A stretch of 5,554 nt of DNA, taken from the IMG/VR virus record IMGVR_UViG_2706794685_000013; one strand, 5' to 3'. The stretch's first letter is position 1, and every line of letters begins with the position of its first letter. This document shows, piece by piece, positions 1 to 5,449 of the stretch. Source of the stretch: a virus (Duplodnaviria > Heunggongvirae > Uroviricota > Caudoviricetes). The notes beneath the pieces are model-generated. The model did no database searches. It was not told the DNA's origin and saw nothing but the letters and a program-made list of their open reading frames with translations. The translations under genes and the position numbers were made by a program.

Positions 1-406
1 GGGACGGAAGTCGCTGTCGTTCTCAAAATCGGTGGAGCTGCATGACAAAGTCATCGGGCATTATCTGAACATAAAACACTATCAATAAGTTGGAGTCATT
101 ACCCGATATCCTGCTGAGAACATAAACACCCACGGATCGAGGCGTACGCTATCATGTTGCTGTGCACCGCCCAGTTTATAATTGGCGATGGTATCGATAT
201 CCATGTACCACACTGACATGTTTTAAAAAATGCAATAAGACATTGTATCTGAAAGAAAAAACAGGATTTTGAGGCGCTTTTTTATACCGTTTTCCGTGTT
301 TTTAACTGCCTGATTTTATTGAAATCTTTTTTAGTTTTGCAGAAAGGATTTTTTGCTCGATCGCTTTAATTTTATACATTCCTGATAACGGAAATTTTTT
401 TGCCCG

Positions 407-436
407 TTGACAGTTTTTGTTCTCCGGGGCTATATT
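407..436 (+). promoter_or_regulatory. Putative sigma70 promoter: -35 TTGACA (407-412), 18-nt spacer, -10 TATATT (431-436), preceded by an A/T tract (392-401) resembling an UP element
   Basis: Exact TTGACA hexamer and a 5/6 match to TATAAT at allowed spacing, read directly from the sequence. Oriented toward the Rha-like gene at 679. Confidence 0.4.
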
Positions 437-497
437 CCTCACACAACCGCAAAATCGGTTGTCGGGATTGGCGTCTCGGATAACATCACAACGCATA

Positions 498-518
498 GCC
501 GCGTTTGCGGTTTTTTTT
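498..518 (+). terminator. Putative intrinsic terminator or attenuator in the leader: short GC stem (gccgc/gcggt, loop gttt) followed by a run of 8 T
   Basis: Hairpin plus T8 tract about 55-75 nt downstream of the predicted start site. The stem is short (4 GC pairs plus one GU), so strength is uncertain. Confidence 0.3.
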
Positions 519-678
519 GCGTTAAGCATTGCCACATTCGCATTATGGTGGGGCGTGCAGGGGCGGAGAAATCCGCGCCGGGTTTTGTGATGACCGGTTA
601 CGCCAACCCTGTACGTCTCACCACCTCCCTGATTGGCGTCAGAGGTGGTGATCATCCAATTAATTGGAGTCATCACAT

Positions 679-1239
679 ATGAATACAGCTATAACTTTTT
701 CTAACGAGTCACCAAAAGTCTTTTTCAAAGATGGTCGCCTGGTTACCACCTCTCAAGCTGTTGCCGACTACTTCGATAAACAACATAAACACGTTTTAGC
801 TAAGATTGACACACTCGACTGCTCTCCCGAATTTACATCAGCCAACTTTTCGGCCGATGTTCAGACTGTCGAAATTGGCAACGGCGCAGANNNNNNNNNN
901 NNNNNNNNNNNNNNNNNNNNNNNNNNNNNNNNNNNNNNNNNNNNNNNNNNNNNNNNNNNNNNNNNNNNNNNNNNNNNNNNNNNNNNNNNNNNNNNNNNNN
1001 NNNNNNNNNNNNNNNNNNNNNNNNNNNNNNNNNNNNNNNNNNNNNNNNNNNNNNNNNNNNNNNNNNNNNNNNNNNNNNNNNNNNNNNNNNNNNNNNNNNN
1101 NNNNNNNNNNNNNNNNNNNNNNNNNNNNNNNNNNNNNNNNNNNNNATGCACTCTGGAACGGTTTAAATTTTATCTGGAGCAACATGGGTGGATCGTTGCC
1201 CGTAAAGAACAATTGGTGGAAAGGTTGATGCGGTTTTAA
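679..1239 (+). CDS. Phage regulatory protein, Rha family (central part masked by N 891-1145)
   Basis: ATG at 679 with GGAG about 10 nt upstream. N-terminus MNTAITFSNESPKVFFKDGRLVTTSQAVADYFDKQHKHVLAKIDTL matches the Rha-domain pattern (xVTTSxxVAxxFxKxHxxVLxxIxxL). The masked run is 255 nt, an exact number of codons, and the same frame stays open to TAA at 1237-1239. Confidence 0.6.
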   Translation: MNTAITFSNESPKVFFKDGRLVTTSQAVADYFDKQHKHVLAKIDTLDCSPEFTSANFSADVQTVEIGNGAXXXXXXXXXXXXXXXXXXXXXXXXXXXXXXXXXXXXXXXXXXXXXXXXXXXXXXXXXXXXXXXXXXXXXXXXXXXXXXXXXXXXXXCTLERFKFYLEQHGWIVARKEQLVERLMRF

Positions 1240-1248
1240 TGAATGCAA

Positions 1249-1280
1249 AACCCCGGATGATCACCGAGGTTAATTTTATC
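1249..1280 (+). terminator. Putative intrinsic terminator after the Rha-like gene (stem aaccccgg/ccgaggtt with one mismatch, loop atgatca, then aattttat)
   Basis: Imperfect 8-bp inverted repeat followed by a T-rich tract immediately after the stop codon. Confidence 0.3.
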
Positions 1281-1365
1281 GAGCGTGATTGCCGCTAATC
1301 GCCATCGCTCTGATTGAGCGTAAATCATTCAGGTTATTCAGTTCTTCCTTCTGCTCTCGCTGACG

Positions 1366-1536
1366 TCAATAAATCCCATCATTGCGATCAACCTCATCCT
1401 TAACCATTGATGCGAGCAGTTCTTCCAGTTTCTGCGCTGACAGCTTTACCTGGTGATCTTCAGCATCTTCCCGGGCTATTGTGGTTCGCGCAGTGGCTGA
1501 TTTTGCTGACATCACCACAGGGGGCAGACGGACCAT
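1366..1536 (-). CDS. Hypothetical small protein (56 aa, MVRLPPVVMSAKSATARTTIAREDAEDHQVKLSAQKLEELLASMVKDEVDRNDGIY)
   Basis: ATG at 1536-1534 with GGAGG 10 nt upstream (plus-strand cctcc 1547-1551). I do not recognise the family. The longer ORF in the six-frame track (to 1647) uses a TTG start and would run through the tfa 3' hairpin, so I prefer the shorter form. Confidence 0.3.
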   Translation of the reverse strand: MVRLPPVVMSAKSATARTTIAREDAEDHQVKLSAQKLEELLASMVKDEVDRNDGIY

Positions 1537-1600
1537 TGAACCATGGCCTCCGGAACAAATAAGGGCAAAAATAACAACCACTATCGAAAGCTCACAAACT

Positions 1601-1760
1601 AACCGCAGCACGTTCCTGCATACGACGTGTCTGCGGCATAATCCCAATGATTACTCCCTGACAGGATTTGCAGGCCACTCAATATCAGGTGCAGTTGATG
1701 TATCAACACGATTCAACAATACCCGATATTTATTCCATGCCTCCAGCAACGATCTTTCTT
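1601..1760. repeat. Direct repeat copy A (about 140-160 bp): 3' end of a tfa gene plus its 3' hairpin; partner is 2651-2800
   Basis: Long identical stretches shared with 2651-2800 (for example ctgcggcataatcccaatgattactccctgacagg and ccactcaatatcaggtgcagttgatgtatcaacacg), with scattered substitutions and one 1-nt indel. Confidence 0.85.
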
Positions 1761-1884
1761 CCTCCGTTGCGATTTCCAGATCTACAGCATCCTGCAGTGG
1801 CGCAATATACTCACTAAATTCCTGGATGTAGAACTGTGTGGTGACGGTCTTCCAGCCATTCGGCTCCTGCTGTATCGAAGCATA
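1651..1884 (-). pseudogene. tfa: Tail fibre assembly protein (lambda Tfa-like), C-terminal 77-codon fragment lacking a 5' portion and start codon
   Basis: Minus-strand translation ...[54 protein letters not shown] closely matches the lambda Tfa C-terminus as I recall it (...[55 protein letters not shown]). Stop TAA at 1653-1651; the frame is closed upstream by TAG at 1887-1885. Confidence 0.65.
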
Positions 1885-1988
1885 CTAGGCTATTTCAATA
1901 TCGCTATGCTGCGGCAGCATTTAACCCCTTGTAATTCATCGCCATAATTGATTTAATTCACAAATAAAACTATAACATGGTGAAATCA

Positions 1989-2645
1989 ATGAAAACAAAC
2001 ACAGATGATGGGGCTAAAATTTACACACCACTTACCCTAAAGCTTTATGACTGGTGGGTTTTGGGAGTATCAAATCGGCTTGCATGGGGATGTCCTACAA
2101 AGGAACACCTTCTTCCACACTTTCTGGAACATTTAGGTAACAACCATCTGGATATTGGTGTTGGAACTGGGTTTTACCTTACTCACGTACCTGAGAGTAG
2201 TCTGATATCTTTAATGGATTTGAACGAAGCTAGCCTGAACGCGGCATCTACAAGGGCTGGGGAATCAAAAATTAAACATAAAATTAGCCATGATGTTTTT
2301 GAACCTTATCCCGCGGCGTTACATGGTCAATTTGATTCCATTTCCATGTTTTACCTTCTTCACTGCCTGCCTGGAAATATATCTACAAAAAGCTGTGTAA
2401 TACGCAATGCGGCGCAGGCCTTAACTGACGATGGAACTCTATACGGAGCCACAATTCTTGGCGATGGAGTTGTGCACAATAGCTTCGGTCAAAAACTGAT
2501 GCGCATTTACAATCAGAAAGGCATCTTTTCAAACACAAAAGATTCCGAAGAAGGCTTAACACATATACTCTCAGAGCATTTCGAGAATGTTAAAACCAGG
2601 GTTCAAGGTACTGTAGTAATGTTTTCCGCTTCAGGGAAAAAATAG
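1989..2645 (+). CDS. Class I SAM-dependent methyltransferase, small-molecule/protein/RNA type, not a DNA methyltransferase (alternative start ATG 1977)
   Basis: Rossmann-fold motifs in order: motif I LDIGVGTG, acidic post-I LMDLNEASL, motif II FDSISMFYLL, motif III LTDDGTLYGATI. No DPPY/NPPY or PCQ/ENV DNA-methyltransferase motifs. GGTGA lies 5 nt upstream of ATG 1989. Visibly AT-rich relative to flanking phage genes. Confidence 0.8.
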   Translation: MKTNTDDGAKIYTPLTLKLYDWWVLGVSNRLAWGCPTKEHLLPHFLEHLGNNHLDIGVGTGFYLTHVPESSLISLMDLNEASLNAASTRAGESKIKHKISHDVFEPYPAALHGQFDSISMFYLLHCLPGNISTKSCVIRNAAQALTDDGTLYGATILGDGVVHNSFGQKLMRIYNQKGIFSNTKDSEEGLTHILSEHFENVKTRVQGTVVMFSASGKK

Positions 2646-2652
2646 CATCCAA

Positions 2653-2685
2653 CCGCAGCACGTTCTTGCTTAAGACGTGCTGCGG
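2653..2685. other. Perfect 11-bp inverted repeat (ccgcagcacgt / acgtgctgcgg) with an 11-nt loop; likely the tfa 3' hairpin or terminator. Imperfect counterpart at 1603-1636
   Basis: Reverse-complement symmetry read directly. On the minus strand it follows the tfa-fragment stop, on the plus strand it follows the methyltransferase stop. Confidence 0.4.
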
Positions 2686-2699
2686 CATAATCCCAATGA

Positions 2700-2789
2700 T
2701 TACTCCCTGACAGGGTTCGTAGGCCACTCAATATCAGGTGCAGTTGATGTATCAACACGGTTCAGCAACACCCGATACTTTTTCTAGGC
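2700..2789 (-). pseudogene. tfa: tfa 3'-end fragment (last 29 codons), fused in frame to the pin fragment; has an internal TAG where copy A has TGG (Trp)
   Basis: Minus-strand translation [28 protein letters not shown], collinear with copy A ([29 protein letters not shown]). Confidence 0.6.
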
Positions 2790-3026
2790 TTCCACCACCA
2801 GCACGACAAGATGCCGCATACAGTGCCCCAGTCAGTCCAGTTTTCAGACAACCAGTGCGTCACCTTTTTGAAGGCGCTTTAAAGCACGTTTTAATCCAGG
2901 TCGGCCTGTCCTTGTTCCGCTTAATTTATCTTCAAATATTTGTTCATATCCTGCACAAACAAGAGCGTTTCGTTGCAGGTCTGTATTCTGGTCATTTGTT
3001 GATACCCTTACATAGCCAATCAGCAC
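2790..3026 (-). pseudogene. pin: Serine invertase of the Pin/Gin/Hin/Cin family, N-terminal 79 codons only, with GTG start and two in-frame TGA stops
   Basis: Translation VLIGYVRVSTNDQNTDLQRNALVCAGYEQIFEDKLSGTRTGRPGLKRALKRLQKGDALVV*KLD*LGHCMRHLVVLVVE matches Pin/Gin (MLIGYVRVSTNDQNTDLQRNALVCAGCEQIFEDKLSGTRTDRPGLKRALKRLQKGDTLVVWKLDRLGRSMKHLISLVGE), including the catalytic Ser in VRVSTNDQ. Stops replace Trp61 (TGG to TGA) and Arg65 (CGA to TGA). GGGAG lies 6 nt upstream of the GTG. No resolvase C-terminus or DNA-binding domain follows. Confidence 0.8.
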
Positions 3027-3080
3027 GCTGAATCTCCCGTCCAAAAGCACAAATCATGCCATGCAGGCCAGAAACCGCCA

Positions 3081-3106
3081 TTATCTAAAACCTCGGTTTA
3101 CGAGAA
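3081..3106. other. Invertase crossover site (gix/pix/cix-like 26-bp imperfect palindrome), TTATCTAAAACCTCGGTTTACGAGAA
   Basis: Reverse complement TTCTCGTAAACCGAGGTTTTAGATAA matches the gix consensus TTCCTGTAAACCGAGGTTTTGGATAA (as recalled) at about 24 of 26 positions. It sits between the invertase start and the start of the tail-fibre variable cassette, as in Mu, P1 and e14. Confidence 0.7.
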
Positions 3107-4067
3107 CTCGGCACAAGCGGGGAGAAAATACCGTTACTCAGTACAGCGAATACCTGGACTAATCGACAAACATTCAGCGGTGGCCTTTCTGGTGAACTAT
3201 CCGGCAATGCTTCTACAGCTGCAAAATTAAAAACTGCCAGGAAAATAAGCAATGTGGCTTTTGATGGTTCCTCCGATATCACATTAAAAGCAAGTCATGT
3301 TGGTGCGTTTGCCTTAGGGAAAACAGGAAGCACCGTTGCGAATGATAAAGCAGTTGGATGGAACTGGAGTAGCGGAGCCTATAACGCAACNNNNNNNNNN
3401 NNNNNNNNNNNNNNNNNNNNNNNNNNNNNNNNNNNNNNNNNNNNNNNNNNNNNNNNNNNNNNNNNNNNNNNNNNNNNNNNNNNNNNNNNNNNNNNNNNNN
3501 NNNNNNNNNNNNNNNNNNNNNNNNNNNNNNNNNNNNNNNNNNNNNNNNNNNNNNNNNNNNNNNNNNNNNNNNNNNNNNNNNNNNNNNNNNNNNNNNNNNN
3601 NNNNNNNNNNNNNNNNNNNNNNNNNNNNNNNNNNNNNNNNNNNNNNNNNNNNNNNNNNNNNNNNNNNNNNNNNNNNNNNNNNNNNNNNNNNNNNNGGTAA
3701 TTCGATTGTATTGGGTGATAATGACACGGGCTTTAAACAAAAAGGCGATGGTAATCTGGATGTTTATGCTAATAACGTCCATGTTATGCGCTTTGTCTCC
3801 GGAAGCATTCAAAGTAATAAAACCATAAATATTACGGGACGTGTTAATCCCTCGGATTACGGTAACTTTGATTCCCGCTATGTGAGAGATGTCAGACTTG
3901 GCACACGAGTTGTTTAGACCATGAAGAAAGGCGTGATGTATGAAAAATCAGGCCATGTAATCACGGGGCTTGGTATTATCGGTGAAGTCGATGGTGATGA
4001 TCCGGCAGTATTCAGACCAATACAAAAGTTAATTAACGGAACATGGTATAACGTATCGCAGGTATAA
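3089..4067 (+). pseudogene. stf: Side tail fibre variable C-terminal cassette (Sv), promoterless and not joined to a constant region in this orientation; masked 3391-3695; in-frame TAG at 3915-3917
   Basis: Open frame from inside the crossover site: NLGLRELGTSGEKIPLLSTANTWTNRQTFSGGLSGELSGNASTAAKLKTARKISNVAFDGSSDITLKASHVGAFALGKTGSTVANDKAVGWNWSSGAYNA... After the gap: [122 protein letters not shown], which matches the lambda-type Stf C-terminus. The two flanks are in different frames if the N-run length is literal. Confidence 0.8.
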
Positions 4068-4069
4068 TC

Positions 4070-4603
4070 ATGCAGCATTTAAAAAACATTGTCGCAGGTA
4101 ATCCAAAAACCGTTGAACAATACCAGCTAACAAAGAATTTTGATGTTATCTGGTTATGGTCCGAAGATGGAAAAAATTGGCATGAGGAATTAAAAAACTT
4201 TCAGGAGGATACAATAAAACTGGCTTACACAGTTGAGGGAATAATTATTGCTATAGACAAGGATGTATCAGCAATTAATCCAGAAGGTTTAAGTGTCGTT
4301 GAGTTGCCTGATATTACAGCAAATCGCCGGGCTGATATTTCGGGCAACTGGATGTTCAAAGATGGTGCGGTGATAAAGCGAACTTATACCGAGGAAGAGC
4401 AAAGGCAACAAGCGGAAAATGAAAAGCAGAGCCTGCTGCAGCTCGTCAGGGATAAAACCCAGCTGTGGGACTCTCAGCTACAGCTGGGCATCATTTCCGA
4501 TGAGAATAAACAAAAATTAACCGAGTGGATGCTCTATGCGCAGAAGGTTGAATCCACAGACACCTCCAGCCTGCCAGTAACGTTTCCCGAACAACCAGAA
4601 TGA
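4070..4603 (+). CDS. tfa: Tail fibre assembly protein Tfa (lambda Tfa / Mu U family)
   Basis: 177-aa [25 protein letters not shown]...[32 protein letters not shown] is 2 nt after the tail-fibre stop (TAAtcATG), the usual stf-tfa coupling. Confidence 0.9.
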
Positions 4604-4606
4604 GAG

Positions 4607-4636
4607 AAGGCCCGCTATCGGGCCTTAATTTTTATT
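4607..4636. terminator. Bidirectional intrinsic terminator between the convergent tfa genes: stem aaggcccg / cgggcctt (8 bp, loop ctat) followed by aatttttatt
   Basis: Perfect 8-bp GC-rich hairpin with a T tract, placed between the stops of the two convergent tfa genes. Confidence 0.6.
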
Positions 4637-5159
4637 CAGGCTTTTGTGGCCATTCAGGATTTGCCGTATCCACACGGCTGACCAGAACACTGTAGCGTTC
4701 CCATGCTTCCAGTCGTGTGCGTTCCTCGTCTGTTGCCATATTCAGCCTGACAGCTCGTTCCAGCGGCTGGATGACTGATTCAGCTTCGGAAAGCAATGCG
4801 GCCTTTTGTGATTCGGCCTGTTGTTGCAGTTCCTGTTCTGTATATTCCCTCTTTACTACTTTACCATCCAGAAACATCCATTTTCCGTTATTGTCTGCGT
4901 GACGATTTGCCGTAATATCAGGAACTTCAACTATGCTTAGCCCTTCAGGATTAATAGTTGAAACGTCTTTACTGACAGCAACGATGATGTTGTTCTCATC
5001 GTAAGCAATTTTTATGGTGTCTGGCTGAAAATTCTTTTGTTCCTCATACCAGTTTTTGCCATCTTCGCAAAAGAGCCATACCACGCCCGCTTTTTTAGTT
5101 AGCTGGTATTGTTCCGGTGTTTTCGGATTCCCGGCCTTAATATTTTTCAGGTGCATCAT
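4632..5159 (-). CDS. tfa: Tail fibre assembly protein Tfa, alternative copy on the opposite strand (Mu U-prime type)
   Basis: 175-aa [33 protein letters not shown]...[35 protein letters not shown] at 5159-5157 is 1 nt after the upstream fibre stop, with GGGGAG upstream. The longer ORF in the track uses an upstream TTG and is not preferred. Confidence 0.9.
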
Positions 5160-5160
5160 C

Positions 5161-5449
5161 TTAAACACTCCCCACGTTGTACCATATTCCCCCAATCAAT
5201 TTCTGAATTGGCCTTCTGGCAACAGTGTCGACAATATCATCCGCATTGCTGTTAATTGCGGCTGTTAAAACATAACCTGACGCATCGCCAAAGCCGTAGT
5301 CGCGCCATACGTTTTTATATTCAATGCTGCCAAGACGAATATCCCGAACGACATGATTATGCAGCCATGTGCTTAACCAGTTGTTTTCCCACACTGAACC
5401 ATAAATATCGCCACTAGACGCAACTTGCGCACCACTTCCCAGCGCAAAT
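5161..5449 (-). pseudogene. stf: Alternative tail fibre variable cassette (Sv-prime), C-terminal fragment only, truncated at its 5' side by the IS insertion
   Basis: Translation ...[95 protein letters not shown] shares the C-terminal [12 protein letters not shown] signature with the other cassette. The upstream part of the ORF in the track (MSVKLRLPQ) is IS-derived sequence. Confidence 0.75.

Follow-up and report, generated by a model that had tools for sequence, protein, structure and literature searches.

Why does a prophage remnant carry a methyltransferase gene between two imperfect direct repeats, beside a dead invertase and close to tail-fibre genes? The question is raised by the window analysed here, the whole stretch of 5,554 nucleotides of Caudoviricetes DNA (IMG/VR record IMGVR_UViG_2706794685_000013). 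The explanation that we consider probable is that the gene, ybcY, is cargo of lambdoid phages with its own promoter, that the repeats are scraps of tfa genes left as recombination scars, and that the product methylates a small molecule. The features on which this account draws are listed in Table 1.

Table 1. Features in and around the ybcY segment (window coordinates; L001 is a locus 99.5% identical to the window).
Feature	Position	Strand	Evidence
Untranslated 3′ portion of tfa fragment A, including the terminator hairpin (stem ~1604-1637)	1601-1650	-	Repeat, folding
tfa fragment A, the 59 C-terminal codons of a tail fibre assembly gene of lambda-Tfa/TfaD type	1651-1827	-	Translation, L001 annotation
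Conserved region upstream of ybcY: two sigma-70-like hexamer pairs and Shine-Dalgarno	1908-1988	+	Promoter scan, conservation
ybcY, intact 218-aa class I SAM-dependent methyltransferase	1989-2645	+	ORF, homologue and profile matches
Untranslated 3′ portion of tfa fragment B, including its hairpin (stem 2653-2685)	2651-2698	-	Repeat, folding
tfa fragment B, 27 codons (2702-2782) and stop (2699-2701)	2699-2797	-	Translation from sequence, L001 annotation
Dead pin-type DNA invertase, ~first 77 codons only, two in-frame stops	2798-3050	-	Profile match, L001 annotation
Single gix/hix-like invertase crossover site, edge of tail-fibre segment	3081-3106		Exact match

The methyltransferase gene is an intact allele of ybcY

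The window gene is an intact allele of ybcY and encodes a stand-alone methyltransferase; its nucleotide sequence is 99.2% identical to that of K-12 ybcY (b0562). The reading frame is open on the plus strand from 1977 or 1989 to a TAG stop at 2643-2645. RefSeq starts the window gene at ATG 1977, giving 222 aa, while ATG 1989 agrees with the start of the homologues and of the PHROG profile and is preceded by the Shine-Dalgarno sequence GGTGA (1979-1983). The YbcY family profile, phrog_2132, is matched with an E-value of 9e-156, residues 5-222 falling on profile positions 1-218 of 218. The ORF and the Pfam scores given below bear out the 218-aa class I methyltransferase proposed here by an earlier, sequence-only reading. 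YmfD of e14, likewise an uncharacterised class I methyltransferase of ~220 aa from a K-12 cryptic prophage, was ruled out as the identity of the gene, the two proteins having no detectable similarity (BLASTP E 14).

The arrangement is not new: it corresponds to the tfaD-ybcY-tfaX module (b0561-b0563) of the K-12 cryptic prophage DLP12, beside appY-ompT-envY. The two ybcY copies are ~99% identical, nucleotide identity is ~97% over 1674-2797, and both loci have a convergent tfa 3′ end with its hairpin at the ybcY stop and a tfa scrap upstream. They differ in that K-12 ybcY is a pseudogene, owing to a 2-nt deletion in codons 3-4, whereas the window copy is intact, and in that a full-length tfaD abuts the ybcY 3′ end in K-12, whereas in the window 27 codons are fused to the dead pin gene. 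The sites (argU in K-12, ompW in the window) and the neighbours (appY/ompT versus ash/Rha with isrK/C4) also differ. Since a module with tfa scraps on either side is already annotated in K-12, the finding is real yet ordinary, and as the module is present in most E. coli it adds little to genome anatomy.

Substitution patterns indicate that ybcY is a functional gene under purifying selection. Its dN/dS is 0.10-0.12 against homologues at 65-79% identity, and values of ~0.1 span the family, island- and phage-borne copies included. Eleven of 14 sampled full-length copies are intact, the remaining three having the K-12 frameshift. Unlike the K-12 reference, the great majority of sampled strains have an intact ybcY under purifying selection; because the reference copy is frameshifted, standard knockout collections are uninformative on this gene. 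The claim that ybcY is visibly more AT-rich than the tail genes is a weak one, the contrast being only marginal (GC of 41.4% versus 40.5-46%; GC3 of 35.6% versus 43-44%).

The flanking repeats are the 3′ ends of tfa genes

ybcY is flanked by direct repeats of 148 bp (1601-1748 and 2651-2797), which are 89-90% identical. They align either as two blocks of 90% identity each, 1601-1629/2651-2679 and 1631-1748/2680-2797, offset by a 1-nt indel, or as a single stretch of 148 columns at 89%, with BLAST E-values of 1e-46 to 1e-50. Each consists of the final tfa codons and a terminator hairpin, as had been read from the sequence alone. Also as described, the downstream copy starts 5 nt past the ybcY TAG, which places its hairpin 5-7 nt past the stop. 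The hairpin folds together range from -18 to -28.5 kcal/mol, with z-scores of -3 to -5. Specifically, the fragment A hairpin reaches -24.1 kcal/mol on the minus strand (z -3.35), and that of fragment B -28.5 kcal/mol on the minus and -23 kcal/mol on the plus strand (z about -5). A terminator scan of the minus strand returned 1620-1604, a 5-pair stem followed by GTTAGTTTGT, which is the inner part of the fragment A hairpin only.

Fragment A carries the L001 annotation 'tail fiber assembly protein, missing N-terminus' and corresponds to K-12 tfaX, which likewise sits upstream of ybcY. Fragment B, a tfa fragment in the L001 annotation too, is the remnant of a convergent tfa gene (K-12 tfaD); upstream in its reading frame lie an in-frame TAG and then a short extra homology up to 2797. 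Both scraps are of the lambda-Tfa/TfaD type; their protein identity to the intact tfa genes of the window is only ~49%, in keeping with the earlier view of ybcY as acquired cargo.

The dead invertase next door, also claimed before, is confirmed by a truncated match to the Resolvase N-terminal domain profile (just positions 2-69 of 145) and by its RefSeq annotation in L001, 'Recombinase family protein, missing C-terminus'. Similarity to what we take to be the PinE sequence extends to ~2798 and is interrupted by the two in-frame stops. The crossover-site search gave one exact match, with none expected by chance, at a site that presumably resembles gix/hix; there was no second site in the window and none near the repeats. 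Could the adjacent invertase or another recombinase then have moved ybcY as a mobile cassette, with the repeats as its functional ends? The 148-bp direct repeats on both sides of ybcY, and the invertase fragment and crossover-like site that adjoin this segment, would fit such a cassette. However, each repeat is the 3′ coding end of a gene from a known family together with its terminator, the extent of the repeats varies by locus, one or the other is absent in many loci, and the crossover-like site has no copy near them. Moreover, serine invertases use inverted sites of ~26 bp, not direct repeats of 148 bp. A mobile cassette is therefore extremely unlikely, and the repeats are tfa scraps rather than the ends of a mobile element.

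The downstream scrap would be the residue of a tfa gene that converged on ybcY, with its terminator hairpin right next to the ybcY stop, and a further deletion in the window would have joined it to codon ~77 of pin (~2797/2798). More generally, the repeats are probably scars of the modular recombination that shuffles the ybcY cassette among lambdoid prophages, and from the mosaic boundaries we infer that they probably double as homology patches promoting cassette exchange. The cassette core common to the window and phages ev243 and Kati spans ~1696-2685, and the flanks differ in extent. Bracketing by two tfa ends, true of the window and K-12, is not general: several other configurations occur, and tfa flanks were seen only around ~98-99% identical copies in E. 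coli, Shigella and E. albertii. The variable scraps offer an example of conserved gene ends as joints in lambdoid mosaicism.

The remnant as a whole is situated between IS1 and IS600. Positions 1-103 are the end of a multi-copy element, which we take to be IS1, adjoining an ompW fragment; reading 1-110 as the icd/e14 attachment site proved wrong.

ybcY is widespread prophage cargo

At an identity of at least 95%, ybcY is present in 3799 of 5426 complete E. coli genomes (about 70%), at argU/DLP12, between ompW and trpA, between bioA and ybhB, and in an O157 prophage. Full-length copies occur in 14 phage records, inducible lambdoid phages among them. In phages ev243 and Kati, ybcY lies in the interval from the tail fibre genes to int, has the orientation of int and exo, and has other cargo nearby (ompT, an AraC-type regulator or an alpha/beta hydrolase). 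In 1137 genomes ompT lies directly upstream of ybcY, replacing the upstream tfa scrap, and one remnant (L102) is reduced to ompT-ybcY-tfa′-int′. The flanks are mosaic and variable among the loci compared.

Collectively, lambdoid coliphages carry ybcY as non-essential cargo in a region that runs from the side-tail-fibre genes to att/int and corresponds to the b region of lambda. The gene is not part of a tail-fibre module, as had been supposed, and sits among other cargo. The analogy with the slot next to an invertase (gin-mom, pinE-mcrA) fails as well: no invertase lies near ybcY in K-12 DLP12, in ev243 or in a minimal argU remnant, and the pin neighbour is incidental. The possibility that close homologues are ubiquitous housekeeping genes in a recurring context is partly matched by near-identical copies in 70% of E. 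coli and by the recurring context, but the gene is prophage cargo, not housekeeping. The same non-essential position holds the lambda b-region morons and lysogenic-conversion genes (lom, bor, ompT and the gtrABC/oac slots). Morons of this type have their own promoter-like region and a 3′ hairpin, a composition under the host average and a variable presence among related phages, features that ybcY may share; unlike them, ybcY encodes a cytoplasmic enzyme rather than a surface protein, and it differs only marginally in composition from the phage genes around it.

A predicted promoter precedes ybcY

The promoter scan found two sigma-70-like hexamer pairs upstream of ybcY, TTAACC-16-CATAAT at 1921-1948 and TTGATT-17-TATAAC at 1948-1976, and this region stays conserved, hexamers included, where ompT supplants the upstream tfa scrap. 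The K-12 ybcY/tfaX spacer was bound by RpoD holoenzyme in vitro, as a genomic SELEX peak that overlaps an H-NS site, and its predicted promoter is TTGATT-17-TATAAC (PMC3946193). This -10 (1971-1976) would place the transcription start inside the Shine-Dalgarno sequence, so that both hexamer pairs are candidate promoters only. We suggest that ybcY is transcribed from its own predicted sigma-70 promoter, which would lie within the ~80 nt upstream, a stretch that is H-NS-bound in K-12. In the excised phage it may also receive read-through from the early leftward operon, given that its orientation matches int and exo. On the plus strand the hairpin 7 nt past the ybcY stop is strong and has no U-run after it, so that termination there is not assured.

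YbcY has the fold of a small-molecule methyltransferase

YbcY is a member of the class I (Rossmann-fold) SAM-dependent methyltransferase superfamily. All four Pfam models proposed for a profile search scored over cutoff: Methyltransf_12 with 37.6 bits (cutoff 30), Methyltransf_23 with 28.8 (27), Methyltransf_25 with 27.7 (27) and Methyltransf_11 with 24.7 (21.2). This disposes of the reservation that the ORF might match no SAM-methyltransferase profile. Motif I, LDIGVGTG (in which DIGVGTG is D55-G61), D77 and D102 are invariant across 38 homologues down to 56% identity and correspond to the GxGxG motif and the SAM-binding acidic residues that end strands 2 and 3. The AF2 model (pLDDT 91.6) predicts seven strands in class I order, with the last strand antiparallel and helices flanking the sheet. 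The methyltransferase core and lid cover all 218 aa, with neither an extra domain nor a transmembrane segment, and the pI is 6.6. Likewise, the reported lack of DNA-methyltransferase motifs was substantiated: YbcY contains neither a DPPY-type nor a PC motif, and a lone ENV at residue 199 comes without PC. The protein therefore falls outside the N6-A/N4-C and C5 DNA methyltransferases, which are defined by catalytic motifs and a target-recognition domain.

Searches by sequence, structure and profiles for a characterised relative found none, and the names of distant relatives were uninformative. Single-protein and profile searches of PDB sequences gave matches to JHAMT (the best, E 6e-6) and UbiG that are confined to the Rossmann core. 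No NCBIfam model came close to its cutoff, and membership of PmtA, RquA and CpaM was rejected on scores far under the cutoffs. The top Foldseek match in the PDB is the R. thermophilum phosphatidylethanolamine N-methyltransferase 8ys9 (E 1e-11, TM 0.62-0.69), to which YbcY is no closer than to many unrelated methyltransferases. Compared with UbiG/Coq5, JHAMT, PmtA, DhpI and the natural-product O/N/C-methyltransferases (Methyltransf_11/12/25), YbcY is 12-22% identical; its N-terminal YTPLTLKLYDWWVLxxSNxxAWxC and C-terminal HNxFGxKLMxxYNxKGIFSNxxDS blocks are family-specific, and no YbcY catalytic residue could be mapped onto a known substrate class. The fold is that of a generic small-molecule class I methyltransferase. 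YbcY does not belong to the known anti-phage defence systems either, mad2 (E 0.0027, 14.6 bits) being the sole, non-significant match among PADLOC models.

What YbcY may methylate

We infer that YbcY is a soluble cytoplasmic methyltransferase that acts on a small molecule or lipid (by O-, N-, S- or C-methylation), and not on DNA. The Mu and e14 cargo beside tail-fibre or invertase modules, to which ybcY had been likened, is related to DNA modification, and a Mom/McrA-like enzyme could protect phage DNA or modify host nucleic acids. This is very unlikely for YbcY, which has no DPPY/NPPY or PC/ENV motifs and no target-recognition or RNA-binding domain, a pI of 6.6, no significant PADLOC match, and common stand-alone chromosomal homologues in Gammaproteobacteria; the three loci without an invertase neighbour also speak against the analogy. 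In another reading, YbcY would N-methylate phospholipids or phospho-bases in the manner of PmtA/PMT and so remodel the membrane of the host, as a form of lysogenic conversion. This would agree with 8ys9 leading the Foldseek matches, with the Plasmodium phosphoethanolamine methyltransferases also among them, and with the abundance of invariant aromatics (Y12, Y20, W22, W23, W33) in the N-terminal helices. With sequence identity of just 15-17% and 15.5 bits against a cutoff of 390 for the NCBIfam PmtA model (NF045882), such an activity is very unlikely.

Alternatively, ybcY could be a functionless passenger, common only through an old, widespread DLP12-type remnant beside ompT. The K-12 copy and three of the 14 sampled copies are pseudogenes, the ybcY promoter region is H-NS-bound, and a K-12 ybcY mutant had no distinct effect in one phenotype test, of Hha toxicity (PMC2408971). 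A literature search on the gene and protein yielded no functional study, returning this negative result, the SELEX promoter/H-NS entry and a note on the ompT context. We nevertheless regard a passenger as unlikely, given a dN/dS of ~0.1 throughout the family, intact copies in badly decayed remnants (the window between IS1 and IS600; L102) and intact copies in inducible phages. Purifying selection, intactness in minimal remnants and persistence in inducible phages leave room for a tentative proposal within the small-molecule reading, namely that YbcY is a domesticated lysogenic-conversion enzyme whose methylation of a specific host metabolite, envelope lipid or xenobiotic alters host fitness or phage susceptibility. 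If true, this would explain what is done by a prophage gene that ranks among the most common uncharacterised ones in E. coli, and any defined YbcY substrate would give a function to a gene in about 70% of E. coli genomes.

Across Gammaproteobacteria, homologues with 50-70% identity occur as stand-alone genes on the chromosome, and the YbcY family there makes up a widespread and entirely uncharacterised branch of the small-molecule methyltransferases. At 85 loci searched for conserved gene neighbours, nothing was common across genera and synteny was confined to single genera. A methyltransferase-esterase link, considered for the alpha/beta hydrolase of ev243 and an Erwinia COesterase, was ruled out, the two proteins being unrelated. 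In Pseudomonas, the syntenic neighbours are a small protein upstream, a downstream ORF that is crotonase-like by eye and a further ORF that is CorA-like by eye.

ybcY within a common prophage cargo module

The methyltransferase gene of the window is ybcY, and the observation that singled it out is real and well above chance. The object is, however, already annotated and very common: it is the prophage cargo module tfaD-ybcY-tfaX of Escherichia coli K-12. The view of the gene as acquired cargo was borne out. Window positions 1674–2797 are about 97% identical to DLP12, a cryptic prophage of K-12, in which a full-length, convergent tfaD is followed by ybcY, the 61-aa scrap tfaX, appY, ompT and envY. 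K-12 ybcY, a pseudogene by annotation, is frameshifted by a 2-nt deletion in codons 3–4, whereas the gene is intact in the window and in 10 other copies sampled. YmfD of e14, the initial guess for this gene, was ruled out by protein comparison.

At ≥ 95% identity, ybcY alone was found in 3799 of 5426 complete E. coli genomes (four copies per genome at most); the entire 1601–2800 stretch is at least 80% covered in 3423. Its chromosomal sites include argU (DLP12), ompW-trpA, bioA-ybhB and an O157 prophage; the ompW-trpA site is that of ST131 strain 4/1-1, which is 99.5% identical to the window over 190–3390. Full-length ybcY also occurs in 14 phage records. Phages Lambda_ev243 and Kati carry it in the stretch from the side-tail-fibre genes to int, in the same direction as int and exo, with ompT, an alpha/beta hydrolase or an AraC-type regulator as neighbours. 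Its product is matched end to end by phrog_2132 ('unknown function'). In E. coli O157 AR-0429 (5655–7868 of that locus), four genes annotated as a general stress protein, two ferritin-like proteins and a manganese catalase separate the methyltransferase from the prophage tfa/tail-fibre genes; we take these to be chromosomal genes of the yciGFE-katN type enclosed by prophage sequence.

Features of the window
Feature	Position	Strand	Remarks
Multi-copy element end	1–103		abuts ompW fragment
ompW remnant	104–190
ash and Rha genes	about 410–1239	+	partly N-masked
isrK, Hfq-binding RNA	443–517	+	Rfam 72 bits, above gathering score
C4 antisense RNA	541–628	+	Rfam 76 bits, above gathering score
DUF4376 fragment	about 1276–1554	−
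tfa fragment A with hairpin	1601–1827	−
Methyltransferase (ybcY)	1989–2645	+
tfa fragment B with hairpin	2651–2797	−
Dead pin invertase	2798–3050	−
Invertase crossover-like site	3081–3106		one
Tail-fibre segment	about 3110–5440	both	two intact tfa genes, opposite orientations
IS600 (IS3-family) start	from about 5440, to 5554		truncates minus-strand tail-fibre gene

Flanking repeats and origin of the cassette

The two imperfect direct repeats described by the sequence-only reading, each a tfa end with its hairpin, were confirmed. The pairs 1601–1629/2651–2679 and 1631–1748/2680–2797 are each 90% identical, and aligned as one they give 89% identity over 148 columns. Copy A retains 59 codons of tfa and copy B 27, with the same C-terminal ending; a GC-rich hairpin follows each (−18 to −28.5 kcal/mol, z −3 to −5 on folding), and the repeats end with the hairpin stem plus 2 nt. 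Copy B begins 5 nt past the methyltransferase stop codon. Because the protein identity of these fragments to the two tfa genes that are intact in the window is only about 49%, they entered as part of the cassette and did not arise by copying of the resident genes. The gene had been called more AT-rich than the tail genes; this is weakly borne out, overall GC being 41.4% versus 40.5–46%, and GC3 (35.6% versus 43–44%) is the sole composition measure to stand out.

The core common to the window, Lambda_ev243 and Kati spans about 1696–2685 and takes in the gene and its hairpin together with the putative promoter region and some of the upstream scrap. Beyond it the flanks vary. K-12 has the downstream tfa at full length; Lambda_ev243, E. 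albertii and the window retain a fragment of it, and in Kati and some other E. coli and Shigella loci the hairpin alone is left. In the place of the upstream tfa scrap, 1137 genomes have ompT immediately next to the gene, and their homology to the window begins only about 80 nt 5′ of the start codon; around homologues of ≤ 79% identity the tfa flanks are wholly absent. A transposable unit bracketed by the repeats does not fit, as the extent of the tfa scraps differs from locus to locus; the variable flanks are rather the pattern that would be expected if modules recombine where gene ends and terminators are conserved. Nor does the gene belong with the invertase or form part of the tail-fibre module, as had been proposed. 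The neighbouring pin is indeed dead (about 77 codons left, two in-frame stops). Its fragment is joined to scrap B through a deletion and is missing from most other ybcY contexts, which leaves the analogy with the gin-mom and pinE-mcrA slots unsupported. The site TTATCTAAAACCTCGGTTTACGAGAA, which we take to resemble gix/hix crossover sites, is present in a single copy, and a search of the window revealed no second one. With pin dead and the partner site missing, the tail-fibre segment is probably frozen.

Protein family

Homologues of 50–70% identity occur in Enterobacterales, Pasteurellaceae, Pseudomonas, Xanthomonadales and Oxalobacteraceae, and remoter relatives in Acidobacteria, marine bacteria and lichen fungi. 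Those of Enterobacter, Yersinia and Erwinia stand alone on the chromosome, each in a neighbourhood unrelated to the others; among 85 loci surveyed, no gene neighbour was conserved beyond one genus, and synteny was within-genus only. A Salmonella enterica copy (67% identical; 4660–9700 of its loci) lies in a prophage integrated beside mutS, in the order int, DUF3950, methyltransferase, ricin-B lectin protein (173 aa), DUF4376, i.e. in the same int-to-tail-fibre slot but with another cargo set. A 79% identical copy shares an island with PerC and an autotransporter. Together, these two copies indicate that the family was captured by mobile elements more than once. Comparison of ybcY with homologues of 65–79% identity gave dN/dS of 0.10–0.12. 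In the Pseudomonas syringae/cichorii group, the orthologues (about 52% identity) have a small acidic ORF (about 100 aa) 6–31 nt upstream; ∼130 nt downstream comes an ORF of about 230 aa, crotonase-like by eye, and beyond it one that by eye is CorA-like. This synteny is confined to the genus.

Enzyme type

The assignment as a SAM-dependent methyltransferase was upheld by a Pfam profile search, with four methyltransferase domains over cutoff; the SAM-binding motifs are invariant across 38 homologues, and a confident AF2 model (pLDDT 91.6) shows the seven-stranded class I topology. We found no characterised relative: NCBIfam models scored far under their cutoffs, PDB sequence matches (JHAMT, UbiG) covered the Rossmann core only, a viral structure library returned generic matches only, and defence-system models gave no significant match. 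The protein (pI 6.6) has no extra domain, membrane segment or DNA-methyltransferase motif, in agreement with the earlier view that it is not a DNA methyltransferase. The invariant residues peculiar to the family are concentrated in two places, the N-terminal helices (Y12, Y20, D21, W22, W23, S28, N29, W33, C35) and an HNxFG...YNxKGIFSN block; regions of this type make up the substrate lid in class I small-molecule methyltransferases. From these features we infer that YbcY is a cytoplasmic methyltransferase acting on a small molecule or lipid. Most E. coli retain ybcY in intact form, and no functional study of it was found in the literature.

Expression

In K-12, RpoD holoenzyme bound the ybcY/tfaX spacer in genomic SELEX, with an overlapping H-NS site, and the promoter TTGATT-17-TATAAC was predicted (PMC3946193). 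This corresponds to window positions 1948–1976; with its TATAAC −10 hexamer, transcription would start within the Shine-Dalgarno sequence. The candidate promoter TTAACC-16-CATAAT (1921–1948) would fit translation from the ATG at 1989 better. Both hexamer pairs lie inside the minimal conserved upstream region. Since in intact phages ybcY runs in the direction of int and exo, lambda biology suggests that it may be read through from the early leftward operon in an excised phage.

The surrounding prophage remnant

The window is a decayed lambdoid prophage end. Its left side is cut off by the element that abuts the ompW fragment; E. coli genomes, with their plasmids counted, contain a median of 10 matches to this element end and 66 at the most, and it is presumably the terminal ∼100 bp of IS1. 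IS1 plus IS600 suggests a Shigella-like host genome rich in IS. isrK and the C4 RNA, just upstream of the ash/Rha genes at the prophage end, resemble a P1/P7-type c4-ant immunity cassette. N runs at 891–1145 (255 bases) and 3391–3695 (305 bases) hide parts of the Rha gene and of a tail-fibre gene; the ST131 locus of 99.5% identity has ordinary coding sequence at both places. A 45-aa antisense ORF (2590–2727, minus strand) overlaps the methyltransferase 3′ end and crosses the hairpin; listed as 'hypothetical protein' in RefSeq (WP_001309429.1) and as 'nucleocapsid protein' in K-12-type records, it is probably a spurious gene call.
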